In this document: positions 12,380 through 64,000 of the stretch, piece by piece
Position numbering within the stretch: the first letter of the stretch is position 1
Layout of the letters: the number at the start of each line of letters is the position of its first letter
From: Massalongia carnosa
Taxonomy: Eukaryota
NCBI GenBank assembly: GCA_965645245.1
Contig: OZ287071.1
Location: 1,860,001-1,924,000 of the forward strand
Direction: 5' to 3'
DNA: 64,000 nt
Notes under the pieces: generated by a model
Told to the model about the DNA's origin: nothing
Database searches by the model: none
The model's input: the letters and a program-made list of their open reading frames with translations, nothing else
Made by a program: the position numbers and the translations under genes

Positions 12380-12681
12380 TACAATGTTATTTACACTTTC
12401 ATATGATTTTTATAGCTTTATGTTTATTGTTCATCGAGATATTCTAGTTTTAGGTCGTAATTAATATTTCTGGAGGGGTGTTCATCCGGTGATAAAATAC
12501 GTTATTTAATACACGTAAATAAAAAGATATATCCGTGCCCCACACTTTTGCTCGGTCGGCCTCGCTTAATGCTAGTCAGTCATACTATCAATACCTTCAA
12601 ATTTCTATCTATCATCTTTTAAAATTCATAATTTATTATTATCATGTCTGAATCTTATACTATAATTGAGTATCGTATTTC

Positions 12682-30642: not shown

Positions 30643-30764
30643 ATCGGTCCTCCTACTTCTACACCATCGGTCCTCCTCCTTCTACACCATCGGTCCTCCT
30701 CCTTCTACACCATCGGTCCTCCTCCTTCTATACCATCGGTCCTCCTTCTACACCATCGGTCCTC
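30643..30764. repeat. 23-bp tandem repeat ATCGGTCCTCCTCCTTCTACACC, ~5.4 copies
   Basis: Units start at 30643, 30666, 30689, 30712, 30735, 30755. Confidence 0.93.
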
Positions 30765-30941
30765 ACCACGGAGACGCCAAAGGCCTCACCGTGGAGCGAC
30801 CGACAAACATAGATTTGCTCCTATCTTTTCGCATCAAAACAATGCTAATTTAACGCGTTCATACGCGTCGCAGACGTACGTACGGAAAAGGATACGAAGG
30901 CCAACCACCGGGGGGTAGAATGCGCGCGTCCCTGCACCATG

Positions 30942-31101
30942 CTTCTAAGGGTTCAAGTCCCTTCATGCAGTCATCAGCTGGAAGAAGATGTGGACTAAAG
31001 GAGCCGCATCATCCCCCACCCGGGCACAATCGACACGCGTTCTAGCTCCTGAGAGTTCAAGTCTCCCCATGCAGTCATCAGCTGGGATCAACAGAACGCG
31101 T
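30942..31101 (+). ncRNA. Candidate structured RNA motif, copies 1 (30942-30984) and 2 (31047-31087)
   Basis: P1-[NNRG-TTCAAGT-CYNN]-N4-GCAGTCATCAGC-P1' with different but complementary P1 strands in each copy. Confidence 0.7.
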
Positions 31102-32281
31102 AAAGGCACCGGGGCGAATGCTGTCACCTCAAGAAAACTCCATCTCGGAGCAGAATAACAATATCCCATTGAGTTCATTGAATCAACCATCGACGCCTGA
31201 ACAACAAGAAACACAAGTACCGCAACTTTTGATACACTATAACTTTAACAATCAATTGAGCCTCTATTTCTCAGTCATTTGCGCTCCTCCAGAGTTAAAA
31301 CGCTCTCAGATTGAGTGTAGGAGAGCTCTAGCAAAGCTCCAGCAGAGATTTTCTGCTGGTCGCACGCGACCGACGTGATAAAGCGCGCTCTAGAAGTTGG
31401 AAAAAACAACAAATACCAACAACCTCACCAAAAATCGCTCTTTTTTCTTGTTTTCTTCTGTTCTGTTGTCGCATGACCTTCAATTATCACTATAAAAATT
31501 ATCTACAAAAATTATCTACTCTCGCGGGACTGTACAACAACTGTCGCGACGTCAGAGTCTTCTAAAGTTCATTCCTCATTTAAGGTTACGGGAACTTCCG
31601 CAAGCACAAATTTTCATAGCATATTTCACGTATAAATTTTGCACATTCCATTTTCGGCTTTATAGATCTTCGTTGAACGGCCGGTCAACAGATCACTGAA
31701 AAGAAGGGGAAAAACGTCTGGAATAGGATTATACCAAAGGTCCTGTTTCAGATTAATCAGAATAGGAAGTCTCCTATTGTCTTACATTGCATTAAAATTT
31801 ATCTTTATTGAAAAAAGCAAAAAAAAACTTTCATTATTTTCACCTATTGTAATGTCTGGTAAAGGGTTAAATAAGACTTACTGCCTTAGCGAGGAACGGT
31901 CTATTTTAACCCGATTAGGATTTATTTGACGCGTTATAGTCAAATAAATAGGGATAGGAAAGAAAGAGTCATTTGACCAGTAAACAAACAGGTGTAAATT
32001 CTATTCTGACTAGTACGTCCGGGGAAAGTCAGAATAAATTATTTGGTGGCGATAAAAGGGATATTGCAAAGGCAAAAACACTATGCTCAATCGAAGATTT
32101 AACCCGATAGGTCATAGACCAAATCGATTGATACCAACAACTCCTCCCCCAGGCCCCCCTCCACAACATCTATGGGTCCCCCCGAGTACTCCCCCGTGCC
32201 CCCCCCCGAACCGACTCCCCTACGCCATCTTCGGTAGCGATAATTGGGAGCAACCCCCTAACCGTAGAATCCACGGAGGCC

Positions 32282-33742
32282 ATGGACCAAACGCGAGAAT
32301 TTTCGTCCGCACCGTCCACACCCACCCCAAAAACGAAACCTTTTGTCGCGCCATCTGGTGAATTCAGTACCAATCTGCCCATGCCATCATTGAATTCTGA
32401 TATTCGACTGAGTCCACCAATTAAACGCAACAAAAGACGAACATTTGACGAACATTCGATTGAGAGTCAAGAAGTCATCAATCGATCAAAATCGATTCAA
32501 CTATTGAATACGGCAAAAAATGCATTATTAGAGTCATTCGTAATAGATCAAAACCACGAAACGGCTATGGTCATCGATCACGTCAATTCTCTACTGGCAA
32601 AGAAATCGATCAAGCCAAAAGCAACGTTAGAAATGATGGATTGGAAATTGAATAGGGTGCTAGAACAAACTAGCCAAATTCCAGAAACAAAGAGACAATC
32701 GGTGCATCCTATACAGACAAAATCGAAGGGAAATTCAAATGGAAATTCGAATTTGACTAAAAACGTCAACCCAGAAATTCGGAGCGAAACCGCCGGAGTC
32801 CCAGGGCCGCAGGTCAACGATACAGCTAGAACATGGAGCCAAATGCTCGGAAAAGCGACTGTCAATTCCGAAAATTGGACTACCGTTCCTCGATCCAAAA
32901 AAACAAACAAGAACAACAACAATAATTCGAATGCGAACAAATTCGATAATACTGACGATTTCAAGGCGATCAAATCTCGACGATTGATAATCACACCGAA
33001 AGCTCAAATCGGCGATATCGATTCACTGTTGCTTCGAAACCAAATCAATTCGCTTTTTAAAGACGCGAAATTGACTATCGTTGTTAACACGGTCGAAAAG
33101 TCCAAAACGGGTCAAAACATCGTTCTGACTACTAGTCCTGATAACACTGCTGAAGATTTATTGAACAATAAATCAATATGGGAGCATTTATTCGACCCAC
33201 GAACAGTTCGAAAGGACGAATCGTGGTTCAAAGTCGTCGCACACGGTGTAAATATTGCAACATTTGATGAAAACATGCAATATTTGCAAGACGAAATTCA
33301 AAAGTTCAATTCGAACATGCAATTATGCGATGTTCCCAGATGGCTAGCACGTGATCGTCATAACAAGATCAAATCATCCGTTGTTTTGACATTCAATGAT
33401 CGAAATATGGCCTTGAACGCGTTAAAAGGAGTCAATATCGCGGGCCGACATTGTGACACGGAAATATTTACCTCCGTTCGTCCAAACACACAATGCATTA
33501 ATTGTCAAAAATTTGGACACAAGCATTATCAATGCAAAAGTCAAGCGAAATGCAGCATATGTGCGCAAAACCATGAAACACGCAATCATGAATGCACAAC
33601 ATGCAAGTCAAAAATTGCTTGTGCACACGCCGTCGTCAAATGCGCGAATTGCAACAAGAATCATCAATCCAATGATGAAAATTGTGAAATGGTTATATCG
33701 TTAAATGTTCGAAAATCGACTGACGAATTAGCCGCTTTGTAA
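32282..33742 (+). CDS. LINE ORF1 (Gag-like, three C-terminal Cys/His knuckles)
   Basis: CINCQKFGHKHYQC, CSICAQNHETRNHEC, CANCNKNH..C. Confidence 0.92.
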   Translation: MDQTREFSSAPSTPTPKTKPFVAPSGEFSTNLPMPSLNSDIRLSPPIKRNKRRTFDEHSIESQEVINRSKSIQLLNTAKNALLESFVIDQNHETAMVIDHVNSLLAKKSIKPKATLEMMDWKLNRVLEQTSQIPETKRQSVHPIQTKSKGNSNGNSNLTKNVNPEIRSETAGVPGPQVNDTARTWSQMLGKATVNSENWTTVPRSKKTNKNNNNNSNANKFDNTDDFKAIKSRRLIITPKAQIGDIDSLLLRNQINSLFKDAKLTIVVNTVEKSKTGQNIVLTTSPDNTAEDLLNNKSIWEHLFDPRTVRKDESWFKVVAHGVNIATFDENMQYLQDEIQKFNSNMQLCDVPRWLARDRHNKIKSSVVLTFNDRNMALNALKGVNIAGRHCDTEIFTSVRPNTQCINCQKFGHKHYQCKSQAKCSICAQNHETRNHECTTCKSKIACAHAVVKCANCNKNHQSNDENCEMVISLNVRKSTDELAAL

Positions 33743-36700
33743 TGGCAGGACAGCATTCGTTGACAAACATCGAAAATACACAAAATGTTAAATTTATTCA
33801 ACATAATTGTGCAAAGTCAACGAATGCAATGATATCGTGTTTGGAATATGCTTTATCAAATCAAATTGATATTGTTTTGTTTCAGGAACCATGGACACGA
33901 GATCAAAAAACAATATCACATCCGTCATTTACATGTATTATGCCAAAAATAGCGACTTATCGCTCGAGAGTAGCTATATTTGTCACAAATGGCAATTCCA
34001 AACTGCAATGCACGCCTAGAACGGATCTTATTGACGATTCCGATATGCAAATTATTGAAATTACACTTGATGAAGTTCGAAAAGTGAAGATTTTCAATAT
34101 TTATAACGAAAAAAGTCAAAGTGATCGAGAAACATACACGATCGATCGACTTTTAATCCAATTACAACCAAAATCAACTGATCAATTCGTCATCTGTGGA
34201 GATTTCAATGCACATCATAACTGGTGGAATTCGAAAATTCAACAAGCAATTCGATCAGAAAATCTTGTCAAATGGTTGAAATTAAACAGGTGTAGCTTGA
34301 TAAACACACCTGACTTATGTACATACTACGCCCATTCTGGAAGTTCTTCATCTGTTATTGATTTAACTTTTGCAAATTCTAAAATCGAAAATGCAATTAC
34401 AAATTGGTCAATCGATGAAAACGCAGTCATAGGTTCTGATCATGAAGTCATCCGATTTGAACTAATCGCATCTTTCAAAAACTTGACGTCACATGCAACC
34501 TCATTATCGAATAAATACAATTGCAATAAAGCTGATTGGAATAAATTCGCGAAGTATCTAGACGAAAATTCAACCATCTACGAATCACAAGTTCAAAGTT
34601 TATTGAATAATCATCAATTCGACGAATCAGCGATATATTTGCAAAACGTTATCAAAAACGCGGCTGAAATGTTTATTCCGAAAACGAAAATTTGTGCAAA
34701 ATCGAAAAATTGGTGGTCGCATGATTTAACTGAACTTCGAAAAACCATGTGCAGACATCGTCGAGAATGGAAGAATTATCCGTCCGATTTTAGTCATCGG
34801 ACGTTTAAACATAGTCGAATCGAGTATTTTCATGCAATTCGAAAAGCAAAACAACAAACATGGTTGACTTTTCTTGAAAATGCAGCAAATAAAGATGTAT
34901 TTACCGCGTATAAATACACTACACCGCGAATATTCGAAAAAATACCGCCGATTCTACATGAAAACAAGCTAAATGTTCAGTTTGATGACAAATGCGATGC
35001 ATTTGTGTCAGCAATGTATACAAAAAACCCATTTATTGACGATAATGAGGAAGATTTATCAAATCAAGACAGCGTAAATGATGATAATTGGCCAGATTTG
35101 ACCGAAAACGAGTTGAAAAATGCGATTAGTTTATTTAATCCGAAGAAAGCATGTGGACCTGATGCAATCAATTTTACAATTGTTCAAAAATCGTTTCAAT
35201 CGTTGAAAAACGTGTTTTTCATGATTTATTCGAAATTCATTCGAATCGGTTATCACCCGTTATGCTGGCGGACAGGACTCGGTGCAGTTCTGAAAAAACC
35301 TAATAAATCAGACTATTCGTTTCCAAAATCATATCGAATTATCACATTATTAAATTGTCTTGGTAAAATTGCTGAGAAAATCGTTGCAAATCGACTAGCC
35401 TACTTCGGCGAAAATTCGAATTTACTCGATATCGAACAGATGGGCGGACGCAAAAATCATTCTGCAATTGACGCAGTAATGAACGTTGTTCATGATATTG
35501 AAATTGCAAATAGAAATAAAAACGTCTTATCATGTTTATTACTCGATGTCAAAGGCGCATTTGACTTTGTCTCGATTAATCAACTGCTAAATGTTATGAA
35601 AAAGCTGAAATTATCTCGCATAATAATTCAATGGGTCAAGCATTTCTTGACAAAGCGATCGATCAATTTGATATTTGATGAAAATTTAAGCAAAACATAT
35701 TATGTCGAATCAGGAATTCCACAAGGCTCACCAATCTCGCCTATTCTATTTCTGATTTACATTCGTCACTTGTTTCCGAAAATACGAATGAAATTCAATG
35801 CACATTCTCCCAGTTTTATTGACGATGTTGCAATATATGTCGAAAATAAAACTGCAAAACAGAATTGCAATGAAATCGAAATCATAGTCAAAACGGCCTT
35901 TGATTGGGCCGCATCGAATAATGTCAAATTTGATGACGATAAATCCGAGCTGATTCACTTCGAAAAGACAAGAAATGTATCGAAAGACACATTGGAATTA
36001 CCAAACGGGACAGTACTAGAACCGAAAAATGTAGTCAAATGGTTGGGCGTCTGGTTAGACCGAAAACTAAATTTCAAAAAACACGTCGAAACGCGGATCT
36101 CTTCTGCGAATCGATCGTTTTTTGCAATTCAGAATTTGATGAAATCCGAATGGGGTCTGAAACCGACCGCATGCAGACAGCTCTATATGTCATGCATTAT
36201 TCCTATTTCGGACTACGGCTCAGAAATTTGGTATAATGGTCAAAAGAAATATGAAAAACTATTTCAGAACCTACAAAATCGAATGATTCGAAAGATTTTA
36301 GGAACTTTCAAAACTACACCTGTTCAGGCGATGGAAATTGAATCACATGTTTTACCAGTTAAACTTCGATTATTAATGAAAAATCAAAAATACGCAATTC
36401 GATTATTGAAGATTGCCGAAAATAACCCTATTTGTCAAAGAATTCCAAACACATATTCGATAAAATTCGAAAATATCGGTTTTGACACAAGTTTATGGAA
36501 CAACAAATATGCCGAATGGAACGAAGACGAAAAACAAACAAATAAACGACATCCTAGTCAGCTTATTCGCGTTCTTCATTCCGTTTCCGATATAGTTCAC
36601 AAAACTGATGAATTTGAACAATCAAATCATTTTATTAAACCTTGGAAATCGCATTGCAAAATCAAATTTCAAATCGAAAATACAAAGGAATCTGCTAAAT

Positions 36701-37755
36701 CAAGTTATTATTCGACCTTATCCAAAATTAAATCAATGAACTCCGATAAATCCCGAGTTTTACTTTATACAGATGGATCGAAAATCGAATTTGCAACGTC
36801 TGCAGTCACATTTGCGCCAATTATAAGGAATTAGAGTAATATTATCAATAATTTTAATCGATTTATCGAAAAAGATTGTCTGATCAAGTATCATACGATT
36901 TCGAAAAGCTGGAAATTAAGCAAAAAGTCAAGCATTAAAAATGCCGAACTGCATGCGATTTTACAAGCAATGAAATGGGTCTATAAATTGTCGAATACTA
37001 ATATTTTATCGAACTTAGAAAAAACGATTCGGATTTTTTCTGATAGTATAAACGCGATAAACGAAATTCAGAACTTGACAAATCATATTTTCGCCAGACA
37101 AATTCGAAAGCTCGCAAAAATCTTATTTGAAAGCAATTTTCAGGTGATTTTGCAATGGGTTCCGAGTCATTCAAATATTACCGAAAACGAAATTGCAGAC
37201 AAAATAGCAAAGACGGGCCATAATCAAATCCTAGTCGAGTCCTCGGCGATAACATTTGATTATGTAAAAGATCAAATAAATCAAAATATGCTAACCACAT
37301 GGACGAATCAATGGCAACAATGCAAATCAAAAGGCAAATACAACGAGAAATTCGAAATGAAACCTGGCATATCGAGATTTTATTATTTATCAAACAACTG
37401 TTCCAAATTGATATTTGCTACTATTATGCAATTAAAATTCGGACACGGCTATTTTCGATCTTATTTAAAGCGATTGAAAGATTATAATTCGTCAAAATGC
37501 ACAAATCGATGCAATCAACGACAAACGCCAGAACACTTGTTATTGAATTGCATTCACTATTTCGATGAAATTCAAAACATGAAACAAAATATCGATACTA
37601 CTATCAACTTGAATATGTTGTTTAATACAAAAATCGGAAATGACATTTTGATTAAATTCATTGTCAATAACAAAATCGCGACAAGAAAATGGATACTAGG
37701 TCAGCTTGATGACGAGATTTTCGAAACTGGAGGTTGGGGAGAGATCGAACAGTAA
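33742..37755 (+). pseudogene. LINE ORF2 APE endonuclease-RT-RNase H-CCHC (1337 codons) with a single TGG>TAG stop at 36832
   Basis: QEPW, GDFNAHH, GSDH (APE); GIPQGSPISPILF, FIDD (RT); YTDGSK, AEL, SDS, QWVPSH (RNase H); QTPEHLLLNC. Sister copies read TGG at the stop position. Confidence 0.93.
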
Positions 37756-38033
37756 AATCAGAAACGATTTATGCTGATACATTCACGAACTTACAAAGAC
37801 AAATTTTAAAATCGATATTCTTCGATTACTATAGGTTGTTACTAACACGGAGTAAAAATGGGGAAAAATTGACAATACATAGATGGGTTATAAAGGGTTG
37901 ATTTATTTGTAACAAAGAAACATATCCTAAAATAGTTTAGTGTCATAACCTTAGGTTGAATACACTTAATGAATAAATAAATAAAAAAAAACAATATCCC
38001 ATTTAATAGGCCCGGCCTGTTAAATAAAATCGA

Positions 38034-38203
38034 GGAAAACATAGAGTCACAAAACACATAGTCATCAATCACACGTTGTACAAAGCACACAGTTACAAAG
38101 CACACAGTCACAAACACACAGTCAAAAAACACACAGTCACAAAACACACAGTCACAAAACACACAGTCACAAAACACACAGTCACAAAAAACACAATCAC
38201 AAA
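38034..38203. repeat. 15-bp tandem repeat (ACAAAACACACAGTC)n, ~11 copies
   Basis: Directly visible; lies in the LINE B leader. Confidence 0.9.
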
Positions 38204-38282
38204 TCAATAACACGTCCCTGTGAAGGGGGTTCTGCGGGGGCTCGTTAAGACAGATCTTCACCCCGTTAATATCGGCGTACAT

Positions 38283-38527
38283 ATTTTTAGAGGTTCAAGT
38301 CCTTTCTAGCAGTCATCAGCTGAAAATGATGCATTTTGACACGGGCATGGTGTGGATTTGACACGGGTAGACCTCGATGGATCACAAAACGAATGAAAAG
38401 AGTTCAGCGGAACTTCGTTAATATTGTTCTCGAAGACCTCGTTAATAAGATTTTCATAGACCTCGTTAACAACGTTCAGTCATACTCTTAAAGGTTCAAG
38501 TCCTTTCATGCAGTCATCGGCTGAGAG
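38283..38527 (+). ncRNA. Candidate structured RNA motif, copies 3 (38283-38327) and 4 (38485-38527)
   Basis: Same core and spacing as copies 1-2; P1 = ATTTTTA/TGAAAAT and CTCTTA/TGAGAG. Confidence 0.7.
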
Positions 38528-40910
38528 CTAAAGACGTACGACACGGGTCAGCTATGTCTGTCACACGGGTCTCCTTCGTCTACAACACGGAGCCCTCCGG
38601 CTGAAAGAAATAAAACATATAGACACATAGTGTAGGGTCACACCCTACACGATACAAGGGATTTGGGTTATGAAAACCATCCGATTGATGGCTACCGTGA
38701 GCAACACGGCCCGAACCGGAGTCGTACCGGGGATGGTGGAGGCAACCTAGTCATCAAATAGGACACCCTTGGGACAAGAAGAGGGCAATATACGAGGAAC
38801 CCGTTAATTGATAACAGTCTAGGCCCTGAGCTAATAGACGAATTTCAAACGAGCACCCCTCCGAGTTGTCCTCGACTCGTTTTGGTTAGTAGGGACGGAA
38901 AATCGATACTATACTGCCTGGTCAGGAGCATAGTGGTCGAAATCCCTGCGAGACATGGTCGGTTCATAAACGGGAGACCTTTATGAATAACGCGAAGTGG
39001 GCGTAAAAAACCCGTGAGGCGTGGTATGCAATGGCGGCCACCGTACGGAGACCGTCTGCATAGCCCGAGAGGACAGTATGCGCATGTCGGTGTATATAGA
39101 GCAGGGAATGTTTATCTCGCTCGTAACGAGACCCCGTCGGTTCGCCGGCGCATGGGCTACGGCTAGACTCGCCCTTGATGTATGCTTAAGGAGTAAACTG
39201 GGTTTGACCTGGGCGAAAGGGACGTCGTTCACCCCAATCGTAGAATTCATCAATAATCTTGGGCCGAAAAACGCACCAGTGAGATGAACGAAAACTGGGA
39301 TAGAGACTTCACGAAGGAGAGAGATGTCAACTCTATTTTATCATTCTTAGCCCTCCCCAAATGGAATCTCCGGGGCTCTCGTCAGTAGGACTTATAGAAA
39401 AATCGCCTGTACTTGACGAGCCTATGGATCAATCACATGAATATTCGTCCGCCCCGACTACGCCGACCCCAAAAGCAACCAAATTCCCATCTGGACAATT
39501 TACTACCAATCTACCCATGCCATCGTTAAATTCTAATATAGAATTAAGAAACGTAACAAACGAAAAACATTCGACGAACGAGTAGAGGAAAGCCAAGAAG
39601 CAATCAATCGAGCACAATCGATTGGATTACTCAAAACGGCTAAAACCGCGTTATTGAAGTCATTTGTCTTAGATCAAAATCCAGAAACAGCAATAGTCAT
39701 TGATAATGTCAATTCCTTATTGACAAAAAAATCAATTAATATCAAAACAACACTAGACATGATGAATTGGAAATTGGACAAGGTAATTGATCAGACTAGT
39801 AATCGAACCTCAGAAACAACGCGAAAATCGACTCGGGTTCAACAAGTCAATATGACTGAAAATCCAAATAAAGTCGTCAACACGAACGCACGAAAGGAAA
39901 CCGCCGGGGTTACGAGTACAAAGGTCAATAACACGCCTCCATCCTGGAGTCAAATGCTTGGAAAAGCAACTGCGAATTCCGAAAATTGGACCACTGTTTC
40001 CAGATCGAAAAATTCGAGTCAAACCTCGAACAAACTCGACAAAACCGACGAATTAAATGCAATCAAACTCATACGACTGATAATTACACCAAAAATTCAA
40101 ATCGGCGATATCGAATCATTGAAACTTCGAGATCAAATCAACGCGCAATTCAGCAACGCGAAGTTAGATATCGTAATCAACACGGTCGAAAAATCGAAAA
40201 CCGGTCAGAATATCGTTCTCACTACTAGTTCGAAAAACACTGCTGCAGAATTGTTGGAAAACAAATCTATATGGGAACATATGTTCGATGCACAAAGAAT
40301 TCGAAAAGACGAATCCTGGTTTAAAGTGATCGCACATGGAGTAAATATTGCAACGTTTGATCAAAATATGCAATTTTTGCAAAATGAAATCCAGAAATTC
40401 AACCTTAACATGGAATTGTGCGATTTATCCAGATGGCTAGCGCGAGATCGCGAAAACAAAGTCAATTCTTCGGTCGTTTTGACTTTTAACGATCGAAATC
40501 AGGCCTTAAACGCGTTAAAAGGCGTAAATATCGCGGGAAAACACTGTGACACGGAAATATTTACATCCGTTCGTCCGAATACACAATGTATTAATTGTCA
40601 AAAATTCGGACACAAGCATTATCAGTGTCGAAACAAATCAAAATGCAATATTTGTGCACAAAATCATGAAACACGTAATCATGAATGCATAACATGCAAA
40701 TCGAAAACTGCGTGTGCACACGTTGTTGTGAAATGTGCAAACTGCAATAAAAATCATCAATCAAATGATGAACATTGTGAAATGTTTACTGCATTAAATC
40801 CACGAAAATCGGCTGACGAATTATCCGCCTTATAATGGCAGGACAGCATTCGTTGGCAAATATAGAAAATACTCACAATGTCAAATTTATTCAACACAAC
40901 TGTGGAAGGT

Positions 40911-41560
40911 TTTTTTATTTTTATTTTTTATTCATTAAGTGTATTCAACCTAAGGTTATGACACTAAACTATTTTAAGATATGTTTCTATATTACAAATA
41001 AATCAACCCTTTATAACCCATCTATGTATTGTCAATTTTTCCCCATTTTTACTCCGTGTTAGTAACAACCTATAGTAATCGAAGAATATCGATTTTAAAA
41101 TTTGTCTTTGTAAGTTCGTGAATGTTTCAGCATAAATCGTTTCTGATTTTACTGTTCGATCTCTCCCCAACCTCCAGTTTCGAAAATCTCGTCATCAAGC
41201 TGACCTAGTATCCATTTTCTTGTCGCGATTTTGTTATTGACAATGAATTTAATCAAAATGTCATTTCCGATTTTTGTATTAAACAACATATTCAAGTTGA
41301 TGGTAGTATCGATATTTTGTTTCATGTTTTGAATTTCATCGAAATAGTGAATGCAATTCAATAACAAGTGTTCTGGCGTTTGTCGTTGATTGCATCGATT
41401 TGTGCATTTTGACGAATTATAATCTTTGAATCGCTGTAAATAAGATCGAAAATAGCCGCATCCGAATTTTAATTGCATAATAGTAGCAAATATCAATTTG
41501 GAACAGTTGTTTGATAAATAATAAAATCTCGATATGCCAGGTTTCATTTCGAATTTCTCG
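40911..41560 (-). mobile_element. 5'-truncated LINE copy (650 bp) inserted into LINE B ORF2
   Basis: 13-bp TSD AACTGTGGAAGGT (40898-40910, 41561-41573); T-rich tail on the left; ORF2 C-terminus 41149-41547. Confidence 0.95.
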
Positions 41561-51100: not shown

Positions 51101-52482
51101 TGCATCCTCATATCTAGAGTGTCTATGGTTTGTAGCATGAAGTTGCTGTTAACTCTGGGTACATAACATATGATTTTCTTGGTAGGTTCAAGGAACAGTC
51201 TCCAGTTCGAGTTATCATAGAAAATAGAATGCTGATTGAGTAGTCCAAGGCTGACGAGGCTCACAGGGCATTGAGGAATGTAAAGTACATTGTTGAGGGT
51301 CAAAACTGAACAAGGTGATCCGTCCTCTGATGTCAAAGTTTTTTGAATAGTCCCTCTTCCTGGCGATGTGCCTGTGGACGTTGATCCTGCTAGTCCTGTA
51401 GGATAGTCTATGTAGTCAGTGAAAGAGGGTCTGTGATTGCATACATGCATATCTGCCGCGCTGTCCAATAGCCAAGAACTTCTACTGAGACTTGTCATAG
51501 TCATGACCTTCTGTAGTCTAACGGTCATGACCTTTGTGAGTCAACTGCTCACAGTTGGTAGGTCTGTTGATACGGTGGATGTCGGGACCGTTTCCGTTTT
51601 GGAATCAGAGGTCCTTGTTCCTCTTGTCTTCATAGACTCCAAGGGGTATGTTTGACGTCTCAGATTTGGGTATTTCTGAAAGCATTTCTCTAGTAAGTGG
51701 GAAGTCCGCCCTCTTCGGACACATTCTGGAAAGGTGCAAGTTCCTGGTGGTGCTTTTCCGTTGTTTCCGGCAACGCCAGTTCTGGAAGCATTGATGTGGA
51801 GTGCCTTCCTCTCTGGCCTGCTGATGGAGTAAGCGGTGATTGATCTGCATGCAGTCGTGAGGTTCGATCTGCCAGTAATCCAATCCCGACGAAGTTGAGC
51901 TATAAGGGGTAGATAGTCCTCGATGACGTTTCGTAACAAGTATCCTTGAAGGACTTGTTCTGCTCCCTTTGCGTTCAGTTCCGAGTCCTCATCTATCATG
52001 CCTTTTATGGAGTTCAATGCTTTTTCATACTCAGCGCAGTATTGAGTGACATTCTCATAATTCGTCATCTTCTTGGAGTTCATGTTGTAGAGAATGTCGG
52101 TGATGCTCATGGGTGCGATGTCCTGAAACTTGATCTTCAAGATTCTCCACATATCGCCAGCTGTGCGGGTTGATATCAGAGTGTGATGCTGTGGGGCGAC
52201 ACGCATTTGAATGATTCCTTCGGCCTTGAGCATGAGAAGGCTCTGCTTTTCAACGTCAGCTCCGACTTTAGTAAAGATTTGTTCATCCTTGAGATTCGCC
52301 TCGGTGAAGCCCATCTCCAAGTACTTGCGCTTGACTGTCTGATACGTGATAGCGGCAATGTTGTCTTGAATAGCAAAGATACAATTCTTTTGCTTCAGAA
52401 TGCCCTCGGTGTGCACAACCCATTGTGGATAATCTTCCGCTTTTTCTAACAACTGAATCACGTCTTGAGTAGAACTAGACAT
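48163..52482 (-). pseudogene. Copia Gag-PR-IN-RT-RNase H in one frame with two in-frame TGA codons (51541, 50452)
   Basis: WLLDSAA (PR), WHARLGH..CHAC, ENGVAER (IN), FVDD (RT), YSDSDWAG (RNase H). All three ORF pieces are in frame; 50452 replaces the conserved LW. Confidence 0.9.
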
Positions 52483-52673
52483 CTTGTGAATGAAGAGTAG
52501 AAAGCTTGTGAATGAAGAACTTGATTTTTATATCTTAGAGTTCTATAATACAATGTGTGAGGGATAAAGTAGGAGGATGATGTGTTGACTTCTCCTTATG
52601 AGAAAAACAAGCAGCATTCCTTTTACTTATCATCATGCACCTCATTGTCCTAGCAATATTTGCTCCAAGCCCA

Positions 52674-52924
52674 TATCCTAGTGAAAATTTGTCTAACACT
52701 TGGTGGCTTGATTGTAGTCTGATGAACTTTGATCTATCATCGGCTTGTATCCTAGTGAACTTTTACCTATCACTTGGTGGCTTGATTGTAACCTGATGAA
52801 CTTTGATCTATCATCGGCTTCTATCCTAGTGAAATTTTATCTATCACTTGGTGGCTTGATTGTAACCTGATGAACTTTGACCTATCATCGGCTTGTATCC
52901 TAGTGAACTTTTATCTATCACTTG
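52674..52924. repeat. 74-bp tandem repeat, ~3.4 copies, in the Copia 5' leader
   Basis: tatcctagtgaa units start at 52674, 52748, 52822, 52896. Confidence 0.9.
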
Positions 52925-55900
52925 ACGACAAGGAAAAACAGAGTCTGAACAGGGATATACCGTTTTCATTTAACAGGCACAGGGCCTGTTAAATGAAACA
53001 GGGTTCTTCCACTTTCACTACTCCCATGTTTTCCCTTCTGTGGCGTTCAAGAAATCTCTTTTGGCAAGGAAGGACTACTTTTCCAAGATGGGTCTGTATC
53101 TCTTCCTGCTCCCTGAACCTAGTTGACATAGTGGTATCCTTTGGTCTTTAGAGGTTCATCGTTCCTTCTAATCTCCAGGCATACACGCTATTCAAAGGTT
53201 TGTTGAGATTACCTTGGGCCTTTGGGCTAACGGCCTGTCTGGTGTCCAAGGTCTTTGTAGGTATTGTGCATTTGAATTTCGTGTAATGATGCGTGTACGT
53301 AGTTCACGATAGATAATCGTGGTGAGGTAAATTCTAAGTACGCAAAGAAATTTTTTAGTATTGCATCTAAGGGGGTTTTTTTTTTGTAAACGATGATGCT
53401 TAGCTATTATGCACTGTAGTGCTGCGGATGAGCAATTCGATTCGTGACTGAATCGATAGCGCCCTTACGGGCTCATAACCTGTTGAAATAGGTATATGAC
53501 TATGGCTATATGGCTATGATAAAAATGGTATGTATGACCGTGATGTTAAGGATGAAGAGTGCTGTTCAGCAGTCTTTGTCCCATAACTGGTCACCCTCTG
53601 CTAAGCGAGGTGATAAGATTATCTGAGCTGATCTTATCTAATCTCTAGGCTAAGCCTAATACGGCATCTACGGTTTCTGTAGGTGCTCTGTCCATCTTGG
53701 GCAGTCGTAGGTGCTATGTTCATTGAACTGGTAGGTGTTCACTGTACTGGTAGGAGTTGAATATTCAACAAACGCCGATAAATCGCGAATGTTACTCTAT
53801 ACCGATGGATCAAAAACCGAGTTTTCAACTTCCGCTGTCACATTTGCACCAATTATGTGAAATTGGAACAATTTCACCGATAACTTCAATCGTTTTATCG
53901 AAAAAGATTGTCTCCTCAAACATCATACGATTTCGAAAAGCTGGAAATTAAACAAACAGTCAAGCGTTAAAAACGCTGAACTCTATGCGATACTACAAGC
54001 AATAAAATGGGCATACAAATTGACAATTGCGAATATTCTCTTCAATTTGGAAAAAACGATTTGGATTTTTTCCGATAGCATAAACGCGATAAACGAAATT
54101 CAGAACTTGACAAATCATACTTACGCAAAACAAATTCGAAAATTCTCGAAATGCTTATTCGGAAACAATTATCAGGTGGTTCTACAATGGATTCCTAGTC
54201 ATTCGAAAATCGTCGAAAATGAAATTGCAGATAAAGCAGCAAAAGCGGGACATAGTCGAATCCTAGTCGAGTCTTCGATAATAACATTTGATTATGTAAA
54301 GGGTCAAATAAATCGAAATATGTTAGCCACATGGGAGAATCAATGGCAACAATGCAAGTCAAAAGGCAAATACTATGAGAAATTCGAAATGCAGCCGGGC
54401 AAATCGAGTTTTTATTATCTGTCGAATAATTGTTCGAAATTAATATTTGCGACTATTATGCAAATAAAATTCGGACACGGTTATTTTCGATCATATCTGC
54501 ACCGATTGAAAGATTATAATTCGTCAAAATGCACAGGGCGCTGCAACGAACGTCAAACGCCAGAACACTTATTGATGAATTGCATACATTATTCAAATGA
54601 AATCCTAAACATGAAACAAAATATGGATACCACAATTACTTTAAAAATGTTGTTTAATACTAGGATCGGAAATAATATTTTAATTAAATTTATTGTTGAT
54701 AACAAAATCGCGACTAGAAAATGGATGCTAGGTTAGCTGGATGACGAAAATATCGAAACGAGAGGTTGGGGAGAGATCGAACAGTAAAATTAGAAATGAT
54801 TTATGCTGGAATATTTACGAGCTTTACAAAAACAAATTGTAAAATCGATATTTGGATTACTAAAGGTTATTACTAACACGGAGTAAAAACGGGGCAATAT
54901 TGACGATAGATAGTTGGGTTCTAAAGGGTTGATTTATTTGTAAAATAAAACCATATCTTAAAATAGTTTAGTGTCATAACCTTAGGTTGAATACACTTAA
55001 TGAATAAATAAAAAAAAAAAATAAAAATAAAAAAAGTCACTTGTTTCCGAAAATACGAATGAAATTTAATGCACATTCTCCCAGTTTTATTGACGATATT
55101 GCAATATATGTCGAAAATAAAACTGCAAAACAAAATTGCAAAGAAATCGAAATCATAGTCAAAACAGCTTTTGATTGGGCCGCATCGAATAATGTCTTTG
55201 ATGACGATAAATCCGAGCTGATTAACTTCGAAAAGACAAGAAATGTATCGAAAGACACATTGGAATTACCAAACGGGACAGTACTAGAACCGAAAAATGT
55301 AGTCAAATGGTTGGGCGTCTGGTTAGACCGGAAACTGAATTTCAAAAAACACGTCGAAACGCGAATCTCTTCTGCGAATCGATCGTTTTTTGCAATTCAG
55401 AATTTGATGAAATTCGAATGGGGTCTGAAACCGACCGCATGCAGACAGCTCTATTTGTCATGCATTATTCCTATTTCGGACTATGGCTCAGAAATTTGGT
55501 ATAATGGTCAAAAGAAATATGAAAAACTATTTCAGAACCTACAAAATCGAATGATTCGAAAGATTTTAGGAACTTTCAAAACCACACCTATTCAGGCGAT
55601 GGAAATTGAATCACATGTTTTACCAGTTAAACTTCGATTATTAATGAAAAATCAAAAATACGCAATTCGATTATTGAAGATTGCCGAAAATAACCCTATT
55701 CGTCAAAGAATTCCAAATACATATTCGATAAAATTCGAAAACATCGGTTTTGACACTAGTTTATGGAACAACAAATATGCAGAATGGAACGAAGACGAAA
55801 AACAAACAAATAAACGACATCCTAGTCAGCTCATTCGCGTTCTTCATTCCGTTTCCGACATAGTTCACAAAACTGATGAGTTTGAACAATCAAATCATTT

Positions 55901-57256
55901 TATTAAACCTTGGAAATCGCCGTGCAAAATCGAATTTCAAATCGAAAATACAAAGGAATCTGCTAAATCAAGTTATTATTCGACCTTATCCAAAATTCAA
56001 TCAATGAACTCCGATAAATCCCGAGTTTTACTTTATACGGATGGATCAAAAATCGAATTTGTAACGTCTGCAGTTACATTTGCGCCAATTATGAGGAATT
56101 GGAGTAGTATTATCAATAATTTTGATCGATTTATCGAAAAAGATTGTCTGATCAAGTATCATACGATTTCGAAAAGCTGGAAATTAAGCAAACAGTCAAG
56201 CATTAAAAATGCTGAACTGCATGCAACTTTACAAGCAATGAAATGGGTCTATAAATTGTCTAATACTAATATTTTATTGAACTTGGAAAAAACGATTTGG
56301 ATTTTTTCTGATAGTATAAACGCGATAAACGAAATTCATAACTCGACAAATCATATTTTCGCAAGACAAATTCGAAAGCTCGCAAAACGCTTATTTGAAA
56401 GCAATTATCAGGTGATTTTGCAATGGGTTCCGAGTCATTCAAATATTACCGAAAACGAAATTGCAGACAAAATAGCAAAGACGGGCCATAATCAAATCCT
56501 AGTCGAGTCCTCGGCTATAACATTTGATTATGTAAAAGATCAAATAAATCAAAATATGCTAACCACATGGACGAATCAATGACAACAATGCAAATCAAAA
56601 GGCAAATACTACGAGAAATTGGAAATGAAACCTGGCATATCGAGATTTTATTATTTATCAAACAACTGTTCCAAATTGATATTTGCTACTATTATGCAAT
56701 TAAAATTCGGACACGGCTATTTTCGATCATATTTACATCGATTGAAAGATTATAATTCGTCAAAATGCTCAAATCGATGCAATCAACGACAAACGCCAGA
56801 ACACTTGTTATTGAATTGCATTCACTATTTCGATGAAATTCAAAACATGAAACAAACCATCGATACTACGATCAACTTGAATATGTTGTTTAATAATAAA
56901 ATCGGAAATGACATTTTGATTAAATTCATTGTCAATAACAAAATCGCGACTAGAAAATGGATACTAGGTCAGCTTGATGACGATATTTTCGAAACTGGAG
57001 GTTGGGGAGAGATCGAACAGTAAAATCAGAAACGATTTATGCTGAAACAGTTACGAACTTACAAAGATAAATTGTAAAATCGATATTTTTCGATTACTAT
57101 AGGTTGTTACTAACACGGAGTAAAAATGGGGAAAAATTGACGATACATAGATGGGTTATAAAGGGTTTATTTATTTGTAATATAGAAACATATCCTAAAA
57201 TAGTTTAGTGTCATAACCTTAGGTTGAATACACTTAATGAATAAATAAAAAAAAAA

Positions 57257-57856
57257 TAATTGTCAAAAATTTGAACACAAGCATTATCAATGCAAAAGTC
57301 AAGCGAAATGCAGCATATGTGCGCAAAGCCATGAAACACGCAATCATGAATGCACAATATGCAAGTAAAAAATTGCTTGTGCACATGTCGTCGTCAAATG
57401 CGCGAATTGCAACAAGAATCATCAATCCAATGATGAAAACTGTGAAATGGTTATATCGTTAAATGTTCGAAAATCGACTGACGAATTAGCCGATTTGTAA
57501 TGGCAGGACAGCATTCGTTGAAAAACATCGAAAATACACAAAATGTTAAATTTATTCAACATAATTGTGCAAAGTCAACGAATGCAATGATATCGTGTTT
57601 GGAATATGCTTTATTAAATCAAATTGATATTGTTTTGTTTCAGGAACCATGGTCACGAGATCAAAAAACAATATCACATCCTTCATTTACATGTATTATG
57701 CCAAAAATAGCGACTTATCGCTCGAGAGATGCTATATTTGTCACAAATGGCAATTCCAAACTGCAATGCACGCCTAGAACGGATCTTATTGACGATTCCG
57801 ATATGCAAATTATTGAAATTACAATTGATGAAGTTCGAAAAGTGCAGATTTTCAAT
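57257..57856 (+). mobile_element. LINE fragment 'D' (end of ORF1 + start of ORF2) abutting LINE B's tail
   Basis: Near-identical to LINE A ~33500-34098; ORF2 ATG at 57500; cut off by the tail of copy E. Confidence 0.9.
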
Positions 57857-59387
57857 TTTTATTTTTTTTATTTATTCATTAAGTGTATTCAACCTAAGGT
57901 TATGACACTAAACTATTTTAGGATATGTTTCTATATTACAAATAAATCAACCCTTTATAACCCATCTATGTATTGTCAATTTTTCTCCATTTTTACTCCG
58001 TGTTAGTAACAACCTATAGTAATCGAAGAATATCGATCTTAAAATTTGTCTTTGTAAGTTCGTGAATGTTTCAGCATAAATCGTTTCTGATTTTACGGTT
58101 CAATCTCTCCCCAACCTCCAGTTTCGAAAATCTCGTCATCAAGCTGACCTAGTATCCATTTTCTTGTCGCGATTTTGTTATTGACAATGAATTTAATCAA
58201 AATGTCATTTCCGATTTTTGTATTAAAGAACATATTCAAGTTGATGGTAGTATCGATATTTTGTTTCATGTTTTGAATTTCATCGAAATAGTGAATGCAA
58301 TTCAATAACAAGTGTTCTGGCGTTTGTCGTTGATTGCATCGATTTGTGCATTTTGACGAATTATAATCTTTCAATCGCTTTAAATATGATCGAAAATAGC
58401 CGTGTCCGAATTTTAATTGCATAATAGTAGCAAATATCAATTTGCAGTTGTTTGATAAATAATAAAATCTCGATATGCCAGGTTTCATTTCGAATTTCTC
58501 GTAGTATTTGCCTTTTGATTTGCATTGTTGCCATTGATTCGTCCATGTTGTTAGCATATTTTGATTTTTTTGATCTTTTAAATAATCAAATGTTATCGCC
58601 GAGGACTCGACTAGGATTTGATTATGGCCCGTCTTTGCTATTTTGTCTGTAATTTCGTTTTCGGTAATATTTGAATGACTCGGAACTAATTGCAAAATCA
58701 CCTGATAATTGCTTTCAAATAAGAGTTTTGCGAGCTTTCGAATTTGTCTGGCGAAAATATGATTTGTCAAGTTCTGAATTTCGTTTATCGCGTTTATACT
58801 ATCAGAAAAAATCCAAATCGTTTTTTCTAAGTTCGATAAAATATTAGTATTCGACAATTTATAGACCCATTTCATTGCTTTTAAATCGCATGCAGTTCAG
58901 CATTTTTAATGCTTGACTGTTTGCTTAATTTCCAGCTTTTCGAAATCGTATGATACTTGATCAGACAATCTTTTTCGATAAAACGATTAAAATTATTGAT
59001 AATATTACTCCAATTCCTTATAATTTGCGCAAATGTGACTGCAGACGTTGCAAATTCGATTTTCGATCCATCTGTATAAAGTAAAACTTGTGATTTATCG
59101 GAGTTCATTGATTTAATTTTGGATAACGTCGAATAATAACTTGATTTAGCAGATTCCTTTGTATTTTCGATTTGAAATTTGATTTTTCAAGGCGATTTCC
59201 AAGGTTTAATAAAATGATTTGATTGTTTAAATTCATCAGTTTTGTGAACTATGTCGGAAACGGAATCAAGAACGCGAATAAGCTGACTAGGATGTCGTTT
59301 ATTTGTTTGTTTTTCGTCTTCGTTCTATTCGGCATATTTGTTGTTATAAACTTGTGTCAAAACCGATATTTTCGAATTTTATCGAAT
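57857..59387 (-). mobile_element. LINE copy 'E' 3' part (RNase H + 3' UTR), interrupted by copy F
   Basis: T-rich tail at 57857; ORF pieces 58093-58875 and 58881-59108 with small deletions. Confidence 0.9.
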
Positions 59388-62300
59388 TTTTATTTTTATT
59401 TATTCATTAAGTGTATTCAACCTAAGGTTATGACACTAAACTATTTTAGGATATGTTTCTATATTACAAATAAATCAACCCTTTATAACCCATCTATGTA
59501 TTGTCAATTTTTCCCCATTTTTACTCCGTGTTAGTAACAACCTATAGTAATCGAAGAATATCGATTTTAAAATTTGTCTTTGTAAGTTCGTGAATGTTTC
59601 AGCATAAATCGTTTCTGATTTTACTGTTCGATCTCTCCCCAACCTCCAGTTTCGAAAATCTCGACATCAAGCTGACCTAGTATCCATTTTCTAGTCGCGA
59701 TTTTGTTATTGACAATGAATTTAATCAAAATGTCATTTCCGATTTTTGTATTAAACAACATATTCAAGTTGATCGTAGTATCGATGGTTTGTTTCATGTT
59801 TTGAATTTCATCGAAATAGTGAATGCAATTCAATAACAAGTGTTCTGGCGTTTGTCGTTGATTGCATCGATTTGAGCATTTTGACGAATTATAATCTTTC
59901 AATCGATGTAAATATGATCGAAAATAGCCGTGTCCGAATTTTAATTGCATAATAGTAGCAAATATCAATTTGGAACAGTTGTTTGATAAATAATAAAATC
60001 TCGATATGCCAGGTTTCATTTCGAATTTCTCGTAGTATTTGCCTTTTGATTTGCATTGTTGCCATTGATTCGTCCATGTGGTTAGCATATTTTGATTTAT
60101 TTGATCTTTTACATAATCAAATGTTATAGCCGAGGACTCGACTAGGATTTTATTATGGCCCGTCTTTGCTATTTTGTCTGCAATTTCGTTTTCGGTAATA
60201 TTCGAATGACTCGGAACCCATTGCAAAATCACCTGATAATTGCTTTCAAATAAGCGTTTTGCGAGCTTTCGAATTTGTCTTGCGAAAATATGATTTTTCA
60301 AGTTCTGAATTTCGTTTATCGCGTTTATACTATCAGAAAAAATCCAAATCGTTTTTTCCAAGTTCGATAAAATATTAGTATTAGACAATTTATAGACCCA
60401 TTTCATTGCTTGTAAAATTGCATGCAGTTCAGCATTTTTAATGCTTGACTGTTTGCTTAATTTCCAGCTTTTCGAAATCGTATGATACTTGATCAGACAA
60501 TCTTTTTCGATAAATCGATCAAAATTATTGATAATACTACTCCAATTCCTCATAATTGGCGCAAATGTGACTGCAGACGTTGCAAATTCGATTTTCGATC
60601 AATCTGTATAAAGTAAAACTCGGGATTTATCGGAGTTCATTGATTTAATTTTGGATAAGGTCGAATAATAACTTGATTTAGCAGATTCCTTTGTATTTTC
60701 GATTTGAAATTTGATTTTGCAAGGCGATTTCCAAGGTTTAATAAAATGATTTGATTGTTCAAATTTATCAGTTTTGTGAACTATATCGGAAACGGAATGA
60801 AGAACGCGAATAAGCTGACTAGGATGTCGTTTATTTGTTTGTTTTTCGTCTTCGTTCCATTCGGCATATTTGTTGTTCCATAAACTTGTGTCAAAACCGA
60901 TATTTTCGAATTTTATCGAATATGTGTTTGGAATTCTTTGATAAATAGGGTTATTTTCGGCAATCTTCAATAATCGAATTGCGTATTTTTGATTTTTCAT
61001 TAATAATCGAAGTTTAACTGGTAAAACATGTGATTCAATTTCCATCGCCTGAATAGGTGTGGTTTTGAAAGTTCCTTAAATCTTTCGAATCATTTGATTT
61101 TGTAGGTTCTGAAATAGTTTTTCATATTTCTTTTGACCATTATACCAAATTTCTGAGCCGTAGTCCGAAATAGGAATAATGCATGACATATAGAGCTGTC
61201 TGCATGCGGTCGGTTTCAGACCCCATTCGGATTTCATCAAATTCTGAATTGCAAAAAACGATCGATTCGCAGAAGAGATCCGCGTTTCGACGTGTTTTTT
61301 GAAATTTAGTTTTCGGTCTAACCAGACGCCCAACCATTTGACTACATTTTTCGGTTCTAGTACTGTCCCGTTTGGTAATTCCAATGTGTCTTTCGATACA
61401 TTTCTTGTCTTTTCGAAGTGAATCAGCTCGGATTTATCGTCATCAAATTTGACATTATTCGATGCGGCCCAATCAAAGGCCGTTTTGACTATGATTTCGA
61501 TTTCTTTGCAATTCTGTTTTGCAGTTTTATTTTCGACATATATTGCAACATCGTCAATAAAACTGGGAGAATGTGCATTGAATTTCATTCGTATTTTCGG
61601 AAACAAGTGACGAATGTAAATCAGAAATAGAATAGGCGAGATTGGTGAGCCTTGTGGAATTCCTGATTCGACATAATATGTTTTGCTTAAATTTTCATCA
61701 AATATCAAATTGATCGATCGCTTTGTCATGAAATGCTTGACCCATTGAATTATTATGCGAGATAATTTCAGCTTTTTCATAACATTTAGCAGTTGATTAA
61801 TCGAGACAAAGTCAAATGCGCCTTTGACATCGAGTAATAAACATGATAAGACGTTTTTATTTCTATTTGCAATTTCAATATCATGAACAACGTTCATTAC
61901 TGCGTCAATTGCAGAATGATTTTTGCGTCCGCCCATCTGTTCGATATCGAGTAAATTCGAATTTTCGCCGAAGTAGGCTAGTCGATTTGCAACGATTTTC
62001 TCAGCAATTTTACCAAGACAATTTAATAATGTGATAATTCGATATGATTTTGGAAACGAATAGTCCGATTTATTAGGTTTTTTCAGAACTGCACCGAGTC
62101 CTGTCCGCCAGCATAACGGGTGATAACCGATTCGAATGAATTTCGAATAAATCATGAAAAACACGTTTTTCAACGATTGAAACGATTTTTGAACAATTGT
62201 AAAATTGATTGCATCAGGTCCACATGCTTTCTTCGGATTAAATAAACTAATCGCATTTTTCAACTCGTTTTCGGTCAAATCTGGCCAATTATCATCATTT

Positions 62301-64000
62301 ACGCTGTCTTGATTTGATAAATCTTCCTCATTATCGTCAATAAATGGGTTTTTTGTATACATTGCTGACACAAATGCATCGCATTTGTCACCAAACTGAA
62401 CATTTAGCTTGTTTTCATGTAGAATCGGCGGTATTTTTTCGAATATTCGCGGTTTAGTGTATTTATACGCGGTAAATACATCTTTATTTGCTGCATTTTC
62501 AAGAAAAGTCAACCATGTTTGTTGTTTTGATTTTCGAATTGCATGAAAATACTCGATTCGACTATGTTTAAACGTCCGATGACTAAAATCGGACGGATAA
62601 TTCTTCCATTCTCGACGATGTCTGCACATGGTTTTTCGAAGTTCAGTTAAATCTTTCGACCACCAATTTTTCGATTTTGCACAAATTTTCGTTTTCGGAA
62701 TAAACATTTCAGCCGCGTTTTTGATAACGTTTTGCAAATATATCGCTGATTCGTCGAATTGATGATTATTCAATAAACTTTGAACTTGTGATTCGTAGAT
62801 GGTTGAATTTTCGTCTAGATACTTCGCGAATTTATTCCAATCAGCTTTATTGCAATTGTATTTATTCGATAATGCGGTTGCATGTGACGTCAAGTTTTTG
62901 AAAGATGTCATTAGTTCAAATCGGATGACTTCATGATCAGAACCTATGACTGCGTTTTCATCGATTGACCAATTTGTAATTGCATTTTCGATTTTAGAAT
63001 TTGCAAAAGTTAAATCAATAACAGATGAAGAACTTCCAGAATGGGCGTAGTATGTACATAAGTCAGGTGTGTTTATCAAGCTACACCTGTTTAATTTCAA
63101 CCATTTGACAAGATTTTCTGATCGAATTGCTTGTTGAATTTTCGAATTCCACCAGTTATGATGTGCATTGAAATCTCCACAGATGACGAATTGATCAGTT
63201 GATTTTGGTTGTAATTGGATTAAAAGTCGATCGATCGTGTATGTTTCTCGATGACTTTGACTTTTTTCGTTATAAATATTGAAAATCTGCACTTTTCGAA
63301 CTTCATAAATTGTAATTTCAATAATTTGCATATCGGAATCGTCAATAAGATCCGTTCTAGGCGTGCATTGCAGTTTGGAATTGCCATTTGTGACAAATAT
63401 AGCTACTCTCGAGCGATAAGTCGCTATTTTTGGCATAATACATGTAAATGAGGGATTTGATATTGTTTTTTGATCTCGTGTCCATGGTTCCTGAAACAAA
63501 ACAATATCAATTTGATTTGATAAAGCATATTCCAAACACGATATCATTGCATTCGTTGACTTTGCACAATTATGTTGAATAAATTTAACATTTTGTGTAT
63601 TTTCGATGTTTGTCAACGAATCCTGTCCTGCCATTACAAAGCGGCTAATTCGTCGGTCGATTTTCGAACATTTAACGATATAACCATTTCACAATTTTCA
63701 TCATTGGATTGATGATTCTTATTGCAATTCGCGCATTTGACGACGGCGTGTGCACAAGCAATTTTTGACTTGCATGTTGTGCATTCATGATTGCGTGTTT
63801 CATGGTTTTGCGCACATATGCTGCATTTCGCTTGACTTTTGCATTGATAATGCTTGTGTCCAAATTTTTGACAATTAATGCATTGTGTGTTTGGACGAAC
63901 GGAGGTAAATATTTCCGTGTCACAATGTCGGCCCGCGATATTGACTCCTTTTAACGCGTTCAAGGCCATATTTCGATCATTGAATGTCAAAACAACGGAT
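59388..64000 (-). mobile_element. LINE copy 'F' (A subfamily), continuing beyond the window
   Basis: Tail at 59388; ORF2 63634-59621 in one frame (4014 nt, same as LINE A) with nonsense changes TTA>TAA (61076) and GGA>TGA (60599); ORF1 3' end 63634-64000. Confidence 0.94.

Follow-up and report, generated by a model that had tools for sequence, protein, structure and literature searches.

A nested LINE array in the ascomycete Massalongia carnosa as the candidate edge of a regional centromere filled by a centromere-targeting element

We analysed a window of 64,000 nucleotides (C5:1,860,001-1,924,000; contig OZ287071.1, a chromosome of 2.9 Mb) from the assembly of the ascomycete Massalongia carnosa (GCA_965645245.1). 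From 30,618 to its right end, this window is a nest in which copies of one long interspersed element (LINE) family are inserted into one another. We consider it likely, with a probability of roughly 0.8, that the window takes in the edge of a regional centromere, be it core or pericentromere, filled by a centromere-targeting LINE. Exact matches to a reverse transcriptase (RT) motif of the family occur in internal clusters on every chromosome and nowhere else in the assembly, while related LINEs of the same genome are dispersed on the arms.

The assembly (52.16 Mb), in which scaffold gaps of 200 N occur, consists of 25 contigs, namely 22 of chromosome size (C1-C22), two 1-kb scraps, and one 70-kb AT-rich contig that starts with tRNA-like sequence and is probably mitochondrial. 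A 25-mer from the family's RT has 146 exact matches in it, and all 146 fall into 23 internal clusters spread over C1-C22: C7 has two, and each of the other 21 chromosomes has one. The single cluster per chromosome that a first-pass annotation of the window had suspected is therefore found with C7 as the only exception, and the even dispersal that it had named as a refutation is not seen. Cluster spans range from 26 to 182 kb at relative positions 0.22-0.77, and sum to 1.59 Mb or 3.1% of the 22 chromosomes. A tail 26-mer has 256 matches, and the 100 among the matches listed, on C1-C9 only, all lie at most 69 kb from cluster spans. Copies 99-100% identical over 901 bp occur on many different chromosomes, and the youngest copies (98-100% identity, 40 among the matches listed) are all in clusters. 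A stretch of a second young LINE family served as the control, after an earlier control pattern had given only 5 matches. Its best 40 places comprise 27 LINE copies (95-100% identical, query included) and 13 on an insert, which were dropped; of the 27 listed copies none lies inside a cluster span and four lie within 100 kb, in zones that make up 11.9% of the genome. The insert, a dispersed repeat of ~375 bp within an arm LINE (L023:2340-2715), accounts for these 13 of the 40 listed matches. At least six related LINE families are dispersed on the arms.

The same distribution can be followed through a non-coding leader. What had been taken as part of element B, its apparent 5' untranslated region (30,618-31,170 and 38,004-39,350), turned out to be a separate leader of ~1.9 kb, since the same leader end precedes many LINE bodies; the C5 array has four further occurrences, and the LINE position that follows is different in each. 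The 15-mer at its 3' end has 68 genome matches (reversed control, 0), all of which were inspected: 29 continue into the family body, 38 into other LINE families (a few of these bodies being assigned by DNA similarity or translation and not by a direct protein match), and one is unclassified. Altogether, the truncated LINEs to which the leader is joined belong to at least seven families, at least six of them arm families. Chimeras with the family body lie within 100 kb of a cluster in 29/29 cases versus 10/38 for the other families (Fisher P 1e-10; unclassified one aside), and within 50 kb in 27/29 versus 5/38. Chimera location follows the LINE body, and the informative part is that the arms also take up this cargo when another LINE carries it. 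The unclassified copy (L049, C21:987,636) is the sole leader end without a recognisable LINE after it, and an insertion lies near this copy's 3' end. Besides, five other-family chimeras, repeated junctions among them, lie within 100 kb on an arm (C21:448,385-548,089) that shows no family RT-motif match there, a group that probably arose by local duplications.

Target-site duplications (TSDs) around leader plus LINE in six clean cases (G, L072, L020, L023, L024, and L029) showed that both were integrated in a single event. A check on 14 chimeras gave four clean TSDs, three internal or ambiguous ones, and seven without any, and checks with cruder tail calls yielded 1/17 and 2/12 (one low-complexity). 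The 68 ends represent 62 distinct junction 20-mers, in which the leader side ends in TTCTTAG by construction of the search. The LINE sequence sets in at the base after the leader end: where an unfused template was available (42 junctions), 32 match it from +1 to +6. On the LINE side the junctions are A|CCCG-like, with A at -1 in 30/42 (background 33%, P 3e-7), C at +1 in 30/42, a pyrimidine at +2 in 40/42, and G at +4 in 21/42. Spliceosomal trans-splicing was rejected because the LINE has AG before the junction in only 2/42. The 5' ends of the leader vary, mostly inside a 23-bp tandem repeat (30,643-30,764 in the window; Tandem Repeats Finder, TRF). A longer variant carries ~580 further 5' bases with the same start in two unrelated chimeras whose LINEs belong to different families (L091:5423-6000; L090:5203-5790), and all 11 matches to it are at or beside chimeras. 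A second variant has a different short 5' extension. Matches of 41 and 32 bp to the extension end were also seen in non-coding DNA at C7:1,379,725-1,379,838 (L111), beside a GGAGGCTATTT-type repeat.

As for the origin of the leader, a ribosomal DNA (rDNA) spacer was rejected, with no match in 40 kb of rDNA that contains two gaps. The same applies to a known RNA (only sub-threshold Rfam matches, one for the window leader) and to a tRNA derivative (no tRNA in L001-L014). The B-box-like sequence GTTCAAGTC, which we regard as a lead only, occurs four times in the leader as repeats of one unit. The leader 3' end gave no fold signal, while two internal windows have a fold z of about -4 against a crude shuffle. 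The leader is present in contigs of four public runs, one possibly the assembly's own source; all five loose contig ends listed at its 3' end enter a LINE, two of them through junctions absent from the assembly. Of the leader's words, 63% occur in a run labelled lichen metagenome, and no RNA run was listed among the public runs that hold leader words.

Self-comparison and mapping against copy A resolved seven copies (A, B, a 650-bp copy, C, D, E, and F) on both strands of the nest in the window, as listed in the table. Between 30,618 and 64,000 the family covers 76.3%, the leader 5.8%, and a Copia element 17.7%, together 99.8%, which agrees with the initial view of at least seven copies of one LINE group with no host sequence between them. 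The family covers 0% of 1-30,617, also as first reported, and no family match was found in the 20 kb upstream of the window. The nest itself had rightly been recognised, but its extent, given as 30,643..64000, needs revision, as it runs from ~30,618 to ~171,000 (~140 kb) and the window holds only its left edge. Regarding the order of insertion, TSDs bear out the entry of A, the 650-bp copy, and C into B, except that A sits in the separate leader, and likewise that of Copia into C and of F into E. Fragment D does adjoin the tail of B, but an interruption of D by E is not established as a simple insertion, since D has no continuation in the 120 kb checked downstream. Of the TSDs of B, D, E, and F that were thought to lie downstream, only that of F was recovered, none being present for the other three in the same 120 kb.

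Features of the window, with positions counted from its first nucleotide
Feature	Position	Strand	Basis
MKT1 and protein disulfide isomerase, last recognisable host genes left of the array	3711..8918	+ (MKT1); - (protein disulfide isomerase)	Pfam MKT1_N/MKT1_C; Thioredoxin and ERp29
Flanking transposon zone: DDE_1 and Tc1-type transposases, chromovirus, Gypsy	9696..26700		Pfam
Chromovirus	12,682-18,198		Pfam
Gypsy	20,649-26,700		Pfam
Leader 5' part, non-coding, broken by copy A	30618..31170	+	colinear with unbroken leaders elsewhere; TRF
Copy A, near-full-length 6.8-kb LINE, A-rich tail	31171..37991	+	14-bp TSD (31157/37990)
Leader 3' part, non-coding, ends TTCTTAG at 39,350 where the LINE body of B starts	38004..39350	+	
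LINE body of B, three pieces	39351..57256 (39,351-40,910; 41,561-43,533; 55,036-57,256)	+	no TSD for whole element
650-bp 5'-truncated copy, in the start of ORF2 of B	40911..41560	-	13-bp TSD (40898/41561)
Copy C, second subfamily (83-84% to A), 5'-truncated, split by Copia	43534..55035	+	13-bp TSD (43521/55036)
Copia long terminal repeat (LTR) retrotransposon inside C	47865..53770	-	RVT_2, gag, integrase matches; 5-6 bp TSD
Fragment D, ORF1/ORF2 junction, 97% to A, adjoins tail of B	57257..57856	+	no TSD
3' part of E; resumes beyond the window at 66,228-68,028 and 76,257-78,239	57857..59386	-	no TSD for E overall
Copy F, full length to 66,227 (beyond the window), within E	59387..64000	-	16-bp TSD, partner at 66,228; 98.8% to A

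Copy A is 98.8-99.1% identical to copy F and to a full copy at 84,365, and its second open reading frame (ORF2) carries one in-frame stop. The full-length copies A (31,171), F (66,182-66,227), and I (91,160) bear differing extra 5' bases, 45 in F. Element B is a mosaic along its length, with 75%, 94%, and 96% identity to A, which suggests that template switching or conversion between LINE copies may have shaped it. The Copia LTRs (291 bp) are 100% identical. Beyond the window, five further LINE insertions with TSDs of 12-14 bp were found, as well as two features just downstream that the first-pass annotation had missed, the lack of the TSDs above and an inverted duplication. In the latter, which involves copies G and H plus two pieces of E, the junction of G and E has an inverted second copy with 99.9-100% identity (66,228-71,700 versus 78,240-91,750), with different later insertions in each duplicate and a far end that diverges (95.5%). 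Nesting therefore dominates, while deletion and at least one inverted duplication have altered the nest as well.

The choice of target within the nest appears indifferent to sequence. The ten LINE TSDs (12-16 bp) are all different and share no motif, and the 22 mapped target positions are scattered over A2039-6606, where the sole repeat is the duplicated junction. Thus, no conserved target sequence, as would mark a site-specific LINE, was found across the ten TSDs and the 22 positions. The insertions are of the target-primed reverse transcription type, and newer copies sit inside older ones in either orientation and at scattered positions, so the early statement that targeting is not sequence-specific holds. 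With respect to what defines a transposon-cluster centromere, the C5 array, the one cluster that was followed in full, is gene-void and contains nested young copies on both strands with distinct TSDs.

On its right side, the first host genes are EBP2 and TruB at ~199-203 kb in window coordinates. According to ORF screens, which intron-rich genes could escape, ~190 kb between the flanking genes is without a recognisable host gene; DUF6589 and helicase ORFs near 184-187 kb were not counted as such, because transposases adjoin them. The gradient described earlier, from genes over DNA transposons and chromovirus to LINEs, was reproduced by the Pfam matches, and the LTR pairs of the chromovirus and the Gypsy element are 97.8% and 100% identical. 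A tandem-repeat search of the window revealed no satellite. An 82-bp inverted match (94%) occurs at both array edges (30,531-30,612 and, beyond the window, 170,446-170,527) and probably derives from the end of a small transposon. The first cluster of C7 is flanked by copies of the Copia (98.5%) and Gypsy (99.4%) elements of the window (L098:6536-10000; L099:1-6364), hinting at pericentromeric LTR families. TTAGGG tracts were detected at many contig ends by pattern search, and an inward-facing telomere tract is located at C20:1,601,658-1,601,750, 32 kb off the contig end.

The family is an I-group LINE with a Tad1-like architecture. Its ORF2 encodes an APE endonuclease, an RT, and an RNase H (Pfam), whereas Zepp LINEs, which belong to a different lineage, have a restriction-like endonuclease. 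ORF1 ends in Cys/His knuckles and is without a Pfam match, the A-rich tail is followed by a variable TSD, and 5' truncation occurs. The Tad1 label is our assumption from this architecture, as the RT tree held no named Tad1, CgT1, or MGL reference. In that quick tree, supported by the SH-like approximate likelihood ratio test (SH-aLRT) only, the family RTs form their own branch within 31 unnamed database proteins (SH-aLRT 100), and both the nine RTs of arm families from this genome and the proteins named for Aspergillus and Fusarium fall outside it; protein database searches returned no named close relative. The clusters hold at least three subfamilies (75-99% identity). Beyond the zinc knuckle, ORF2 terminates in an acidic, Trp-containing tail (37,690-37,755), and several relatives of the same branch end alike; from its sequence, this tail is a candidate targeting segment. 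The family is un-RIPed: with observed/expected ratios of 1.06-1.12 for CpA, 0.58-0.66 for TpA, and 1.5-1.7 for CpG, and with C>T making up 17 of the 89 differences among three young copies, no signature of repeat-induced point mutation (RIP) or of CpG loss is seen. These values do not fit a RIP-eroded, AT-rich centromere. The nest had been called AT-rich, and its GC content is indeed low, but the cause is the family's intrinsic composition and not RIP.

In the reading that we favour, an active family integrates by target-primed reverse transcription only within its own chromosomal domain, where the ORF1p/ORF2p particle would be tethered by CENH3/kinetochore or pericentric chromatin while its endonuclease would remain site-indifferent; new copies would land in old ones because old copies fill the domain. 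This supports the early suggestion of chromatin-guided integration, possibly at a regional centromere. The leader would be a passenger, with the insertion site set when reverse transcription starts at the LINE 3' end; where the LINE RNA has an A|CCCG-like site, the RT would then switch to a non-coding RNA of ~1.9-2.4 kb, entering it at its fixed 3' end. A more far-reaching version strikes us as rather doubtful. In it, an undescribed fungal LINE lineage would read CENH3 chromatin, so that its copies map the centromeres, and the second nest on C7 would point to a centromere recently gained or moved. The leader would be a tail-less, locus-less RNA parasite that existing chimeras release with an exact UUAG end and that the RT of whichever LINE family is in the cell picks up again.

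Several observations weigh against a centromere-targeting LINE. That the clusters are centromeres is something we infer from their sequence, and since the clusters are defined by the family itself, the presence of family chimeras in them is partly circular. The distance check with the tail 26-mer covers C1-C9, and the other 156 of its 256 matches lie on C10-C22. The proportion of other-family chimeras within 100 kb of clusters exceeds the 11.9% genome share of these zones, so cluster regions also collect other elements. A Pfam search of ORF1 and ORF2 detected no chromodomain or other targeting domain. No solo source locus of the leader was found in the assembly among the 68 end matches or the 11 matches to the longer variant, so the template switch is a step that we infer. 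Finally, C7 carries two clusters, separated by 1.43 Mb and each containing young copies, when a strict rule of one centromere predicts one. The second (C7:2,099,329-2,131,413; L080-L084) is a solid block of family DNA of ~32 kb, with Gypsy, MULE, and other LINEs on its flanks. Among its nine pieces, three show 99.0-99.3% identity to sampled relatives and are thus as young as the C5 copies. Regarding a misjoin, C7 has telomeres at both ends, two patterns found no internal telomere tract, and there was no gap in the 90 kb sampled of the 1.43 Mb; a public contig of 1.39 Mb resembling half of C7 was discounted, since it carries a protein identical to one on C15. The second cluster may be due to a fusion, a misjoin, a neocentromere, or a non-centromeric nest.

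Among the alternatives, self-targeting or cis-retention has to be weighed most closely, although we regard it as unlikely. The particle would recognise its own DNA or stay at its RNA source, and the clusters then need not be centromeres or would be reached only via nuclear clustering of centromeres. Indeed, behind 32 tails from the C5 array, the second C7 cluster, and sampled cluster loci, family DNA follows in 23 cases (14 on the opposite and 9 on the same strand), and the leader in five, while four were unassigned, two of which are family or leader on inspection. Jockey-3 RNA in Drosophila is reported to remain in cis with its cognate DNA (PMC11575011), and a nest grown from one stray copy would explain the second cluster on C7. 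Family DNA, however, makes up 68-81% of the array, so that 23 of 32 fit site-indifferent insertion within the region. Moreover, the insertions keep no register with the element and occur in both orientations, and copies have also inserted into leader and non-family DNA. Self-targeting alone does not yield one internal cluster on 21 of 22 chromosomes, and near-identical copies on many chromosomes speak against it as well.

An absence of targeting, with random insertion, survival only in non-recombining, gene-free centromeres, and purging of arm copies, appears quite improbable. It would fit the gathering of other elements near clusters, both the other-family chimeras and the LTR elements on the flanks, but the arms tolerate young LINEs of like build, with 27/27 listed control copies outside the spans, and even the youngest listed family copies are already all in clusters. 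We give the least credit to an assembly artefact, in which repeats would have been stacked or collapsed by the assembler. The near-perfect inverted identity around G, H, and two E pieces, along with the missing TSDs of B, D, and E, could be read that way. On the other hand, the TSD pairs of ten LINE and three LTR insertions agree over distances of 0.55-15 kb, copies differ by 1-25%, there is no N in the window or the neighbouring 140 kb, and the pattern recurs on 22 chromosomes.

Similar arrangements are known from other systems. In Blumeria graminis f. sp. tritici, the genetic centromeres lack genes, have a lower GC content, and show an enrichment of 11 non-LTR families, of which Fuji was plotted (PMC6587952). 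The present case is alike in that an ascomycete has one gene-void, lower-GC region per chromosome rich in non-LTR elements. It differs in that the Blumeria regions measure 0.68-2.4 Mb, include CentA/CentB tandem repeats, and were mapped genetically, whereas our RT-motif spans are far shorter, involve one family with subfamilies, and show no satellite in the window. The likeness to Fuji is by description only, and no Blumeria-named protein was among the database matches of our family. In Chlamydomonas, ZeppL-LINE1 is the main centromere repeat in CENH3 domains of 63-175 kb, and one chromosome has a second CENH3 site at a new ZeppL insertion (10.1101/2025.03.28.645958). These LINE-dominated regions are similar in size to ours and the second site parallels C7, but ZeppL is from a green alga and its CENH3 binding was shown, whereas our clusters are candidate centromeres. 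Recent insertions of the Drosophila non-LTR element G2/Jockey-3 prefer CENP-A chromatin (PMC11575011), a preference as opposed to the 146/146 clustered matches reported here. An atlas of 325 genomes assigns Omega-state transposon-cluster centromeres to 34/49 fungi (10.64898/2026.09.17.752431); our array resembles them in its young, nested, both-strand insertions, distinct TSDs, and one cluster per chromosome, although worked examples there, including the lichen fungus Ramalina, are LTR elements. Predicted centromeres of Erysiphe necator are mainly LTR-rich (PMC10470754), and in a study of Cladonia the algal partner is said to have LTR centromeres, with none seen for the fungus in the text consulted (PMC12542154).

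The leader resembles the WEIRD module of the MINE elements of Magnaporthe (WEIRD-MGL, PMC2104539), a non-coding 5' module with a fixed 3' end that is joined in sense to variably truncated LINEs, with a TSD around the whole, recurrent junction sites, and no solo module in the assembly. They differ in length (1.9-2.4 kb versus 1.1 kb for WEIRD), in partners (at least seven LINE families versus MGL and Mg-SINE), and in junction rule (A|CCCG-like with CCCG kept versus GCC*A/U). Expression was shown for WEIRD (PMC2104539), and the leader's likeness to it is again by description. Literature searches, with subscription papers largely beyond their reach, retrieved no description of this LINE family and, for MINE-like chimeras, Magnaporthe papers only. 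LINE-cluster centromeres as such are known, and what sets this case apart is the apparently complete restriction of the family, along with leader chimeras that span several LINE families and a further nest on C7.

The C7 nest offers a direct test of whether a LINE nest can mark or seed a second centromere. To our knowledge, centromere targeting by LINEs has been documented as a pattern, and we know of no identified determinant. With a near-intact, un-RIPed, restricted family beside at least six arm families in one genome, comparisons and swaps of ORF1 and ORF2 could locate that determinant. The shared leader adds that the same cargo goes wherever the machinery of the LINE body goes, and it represents a MINE-like system outside Magnaporthe, in which the distinct junctions let the template-switch rule be measured.

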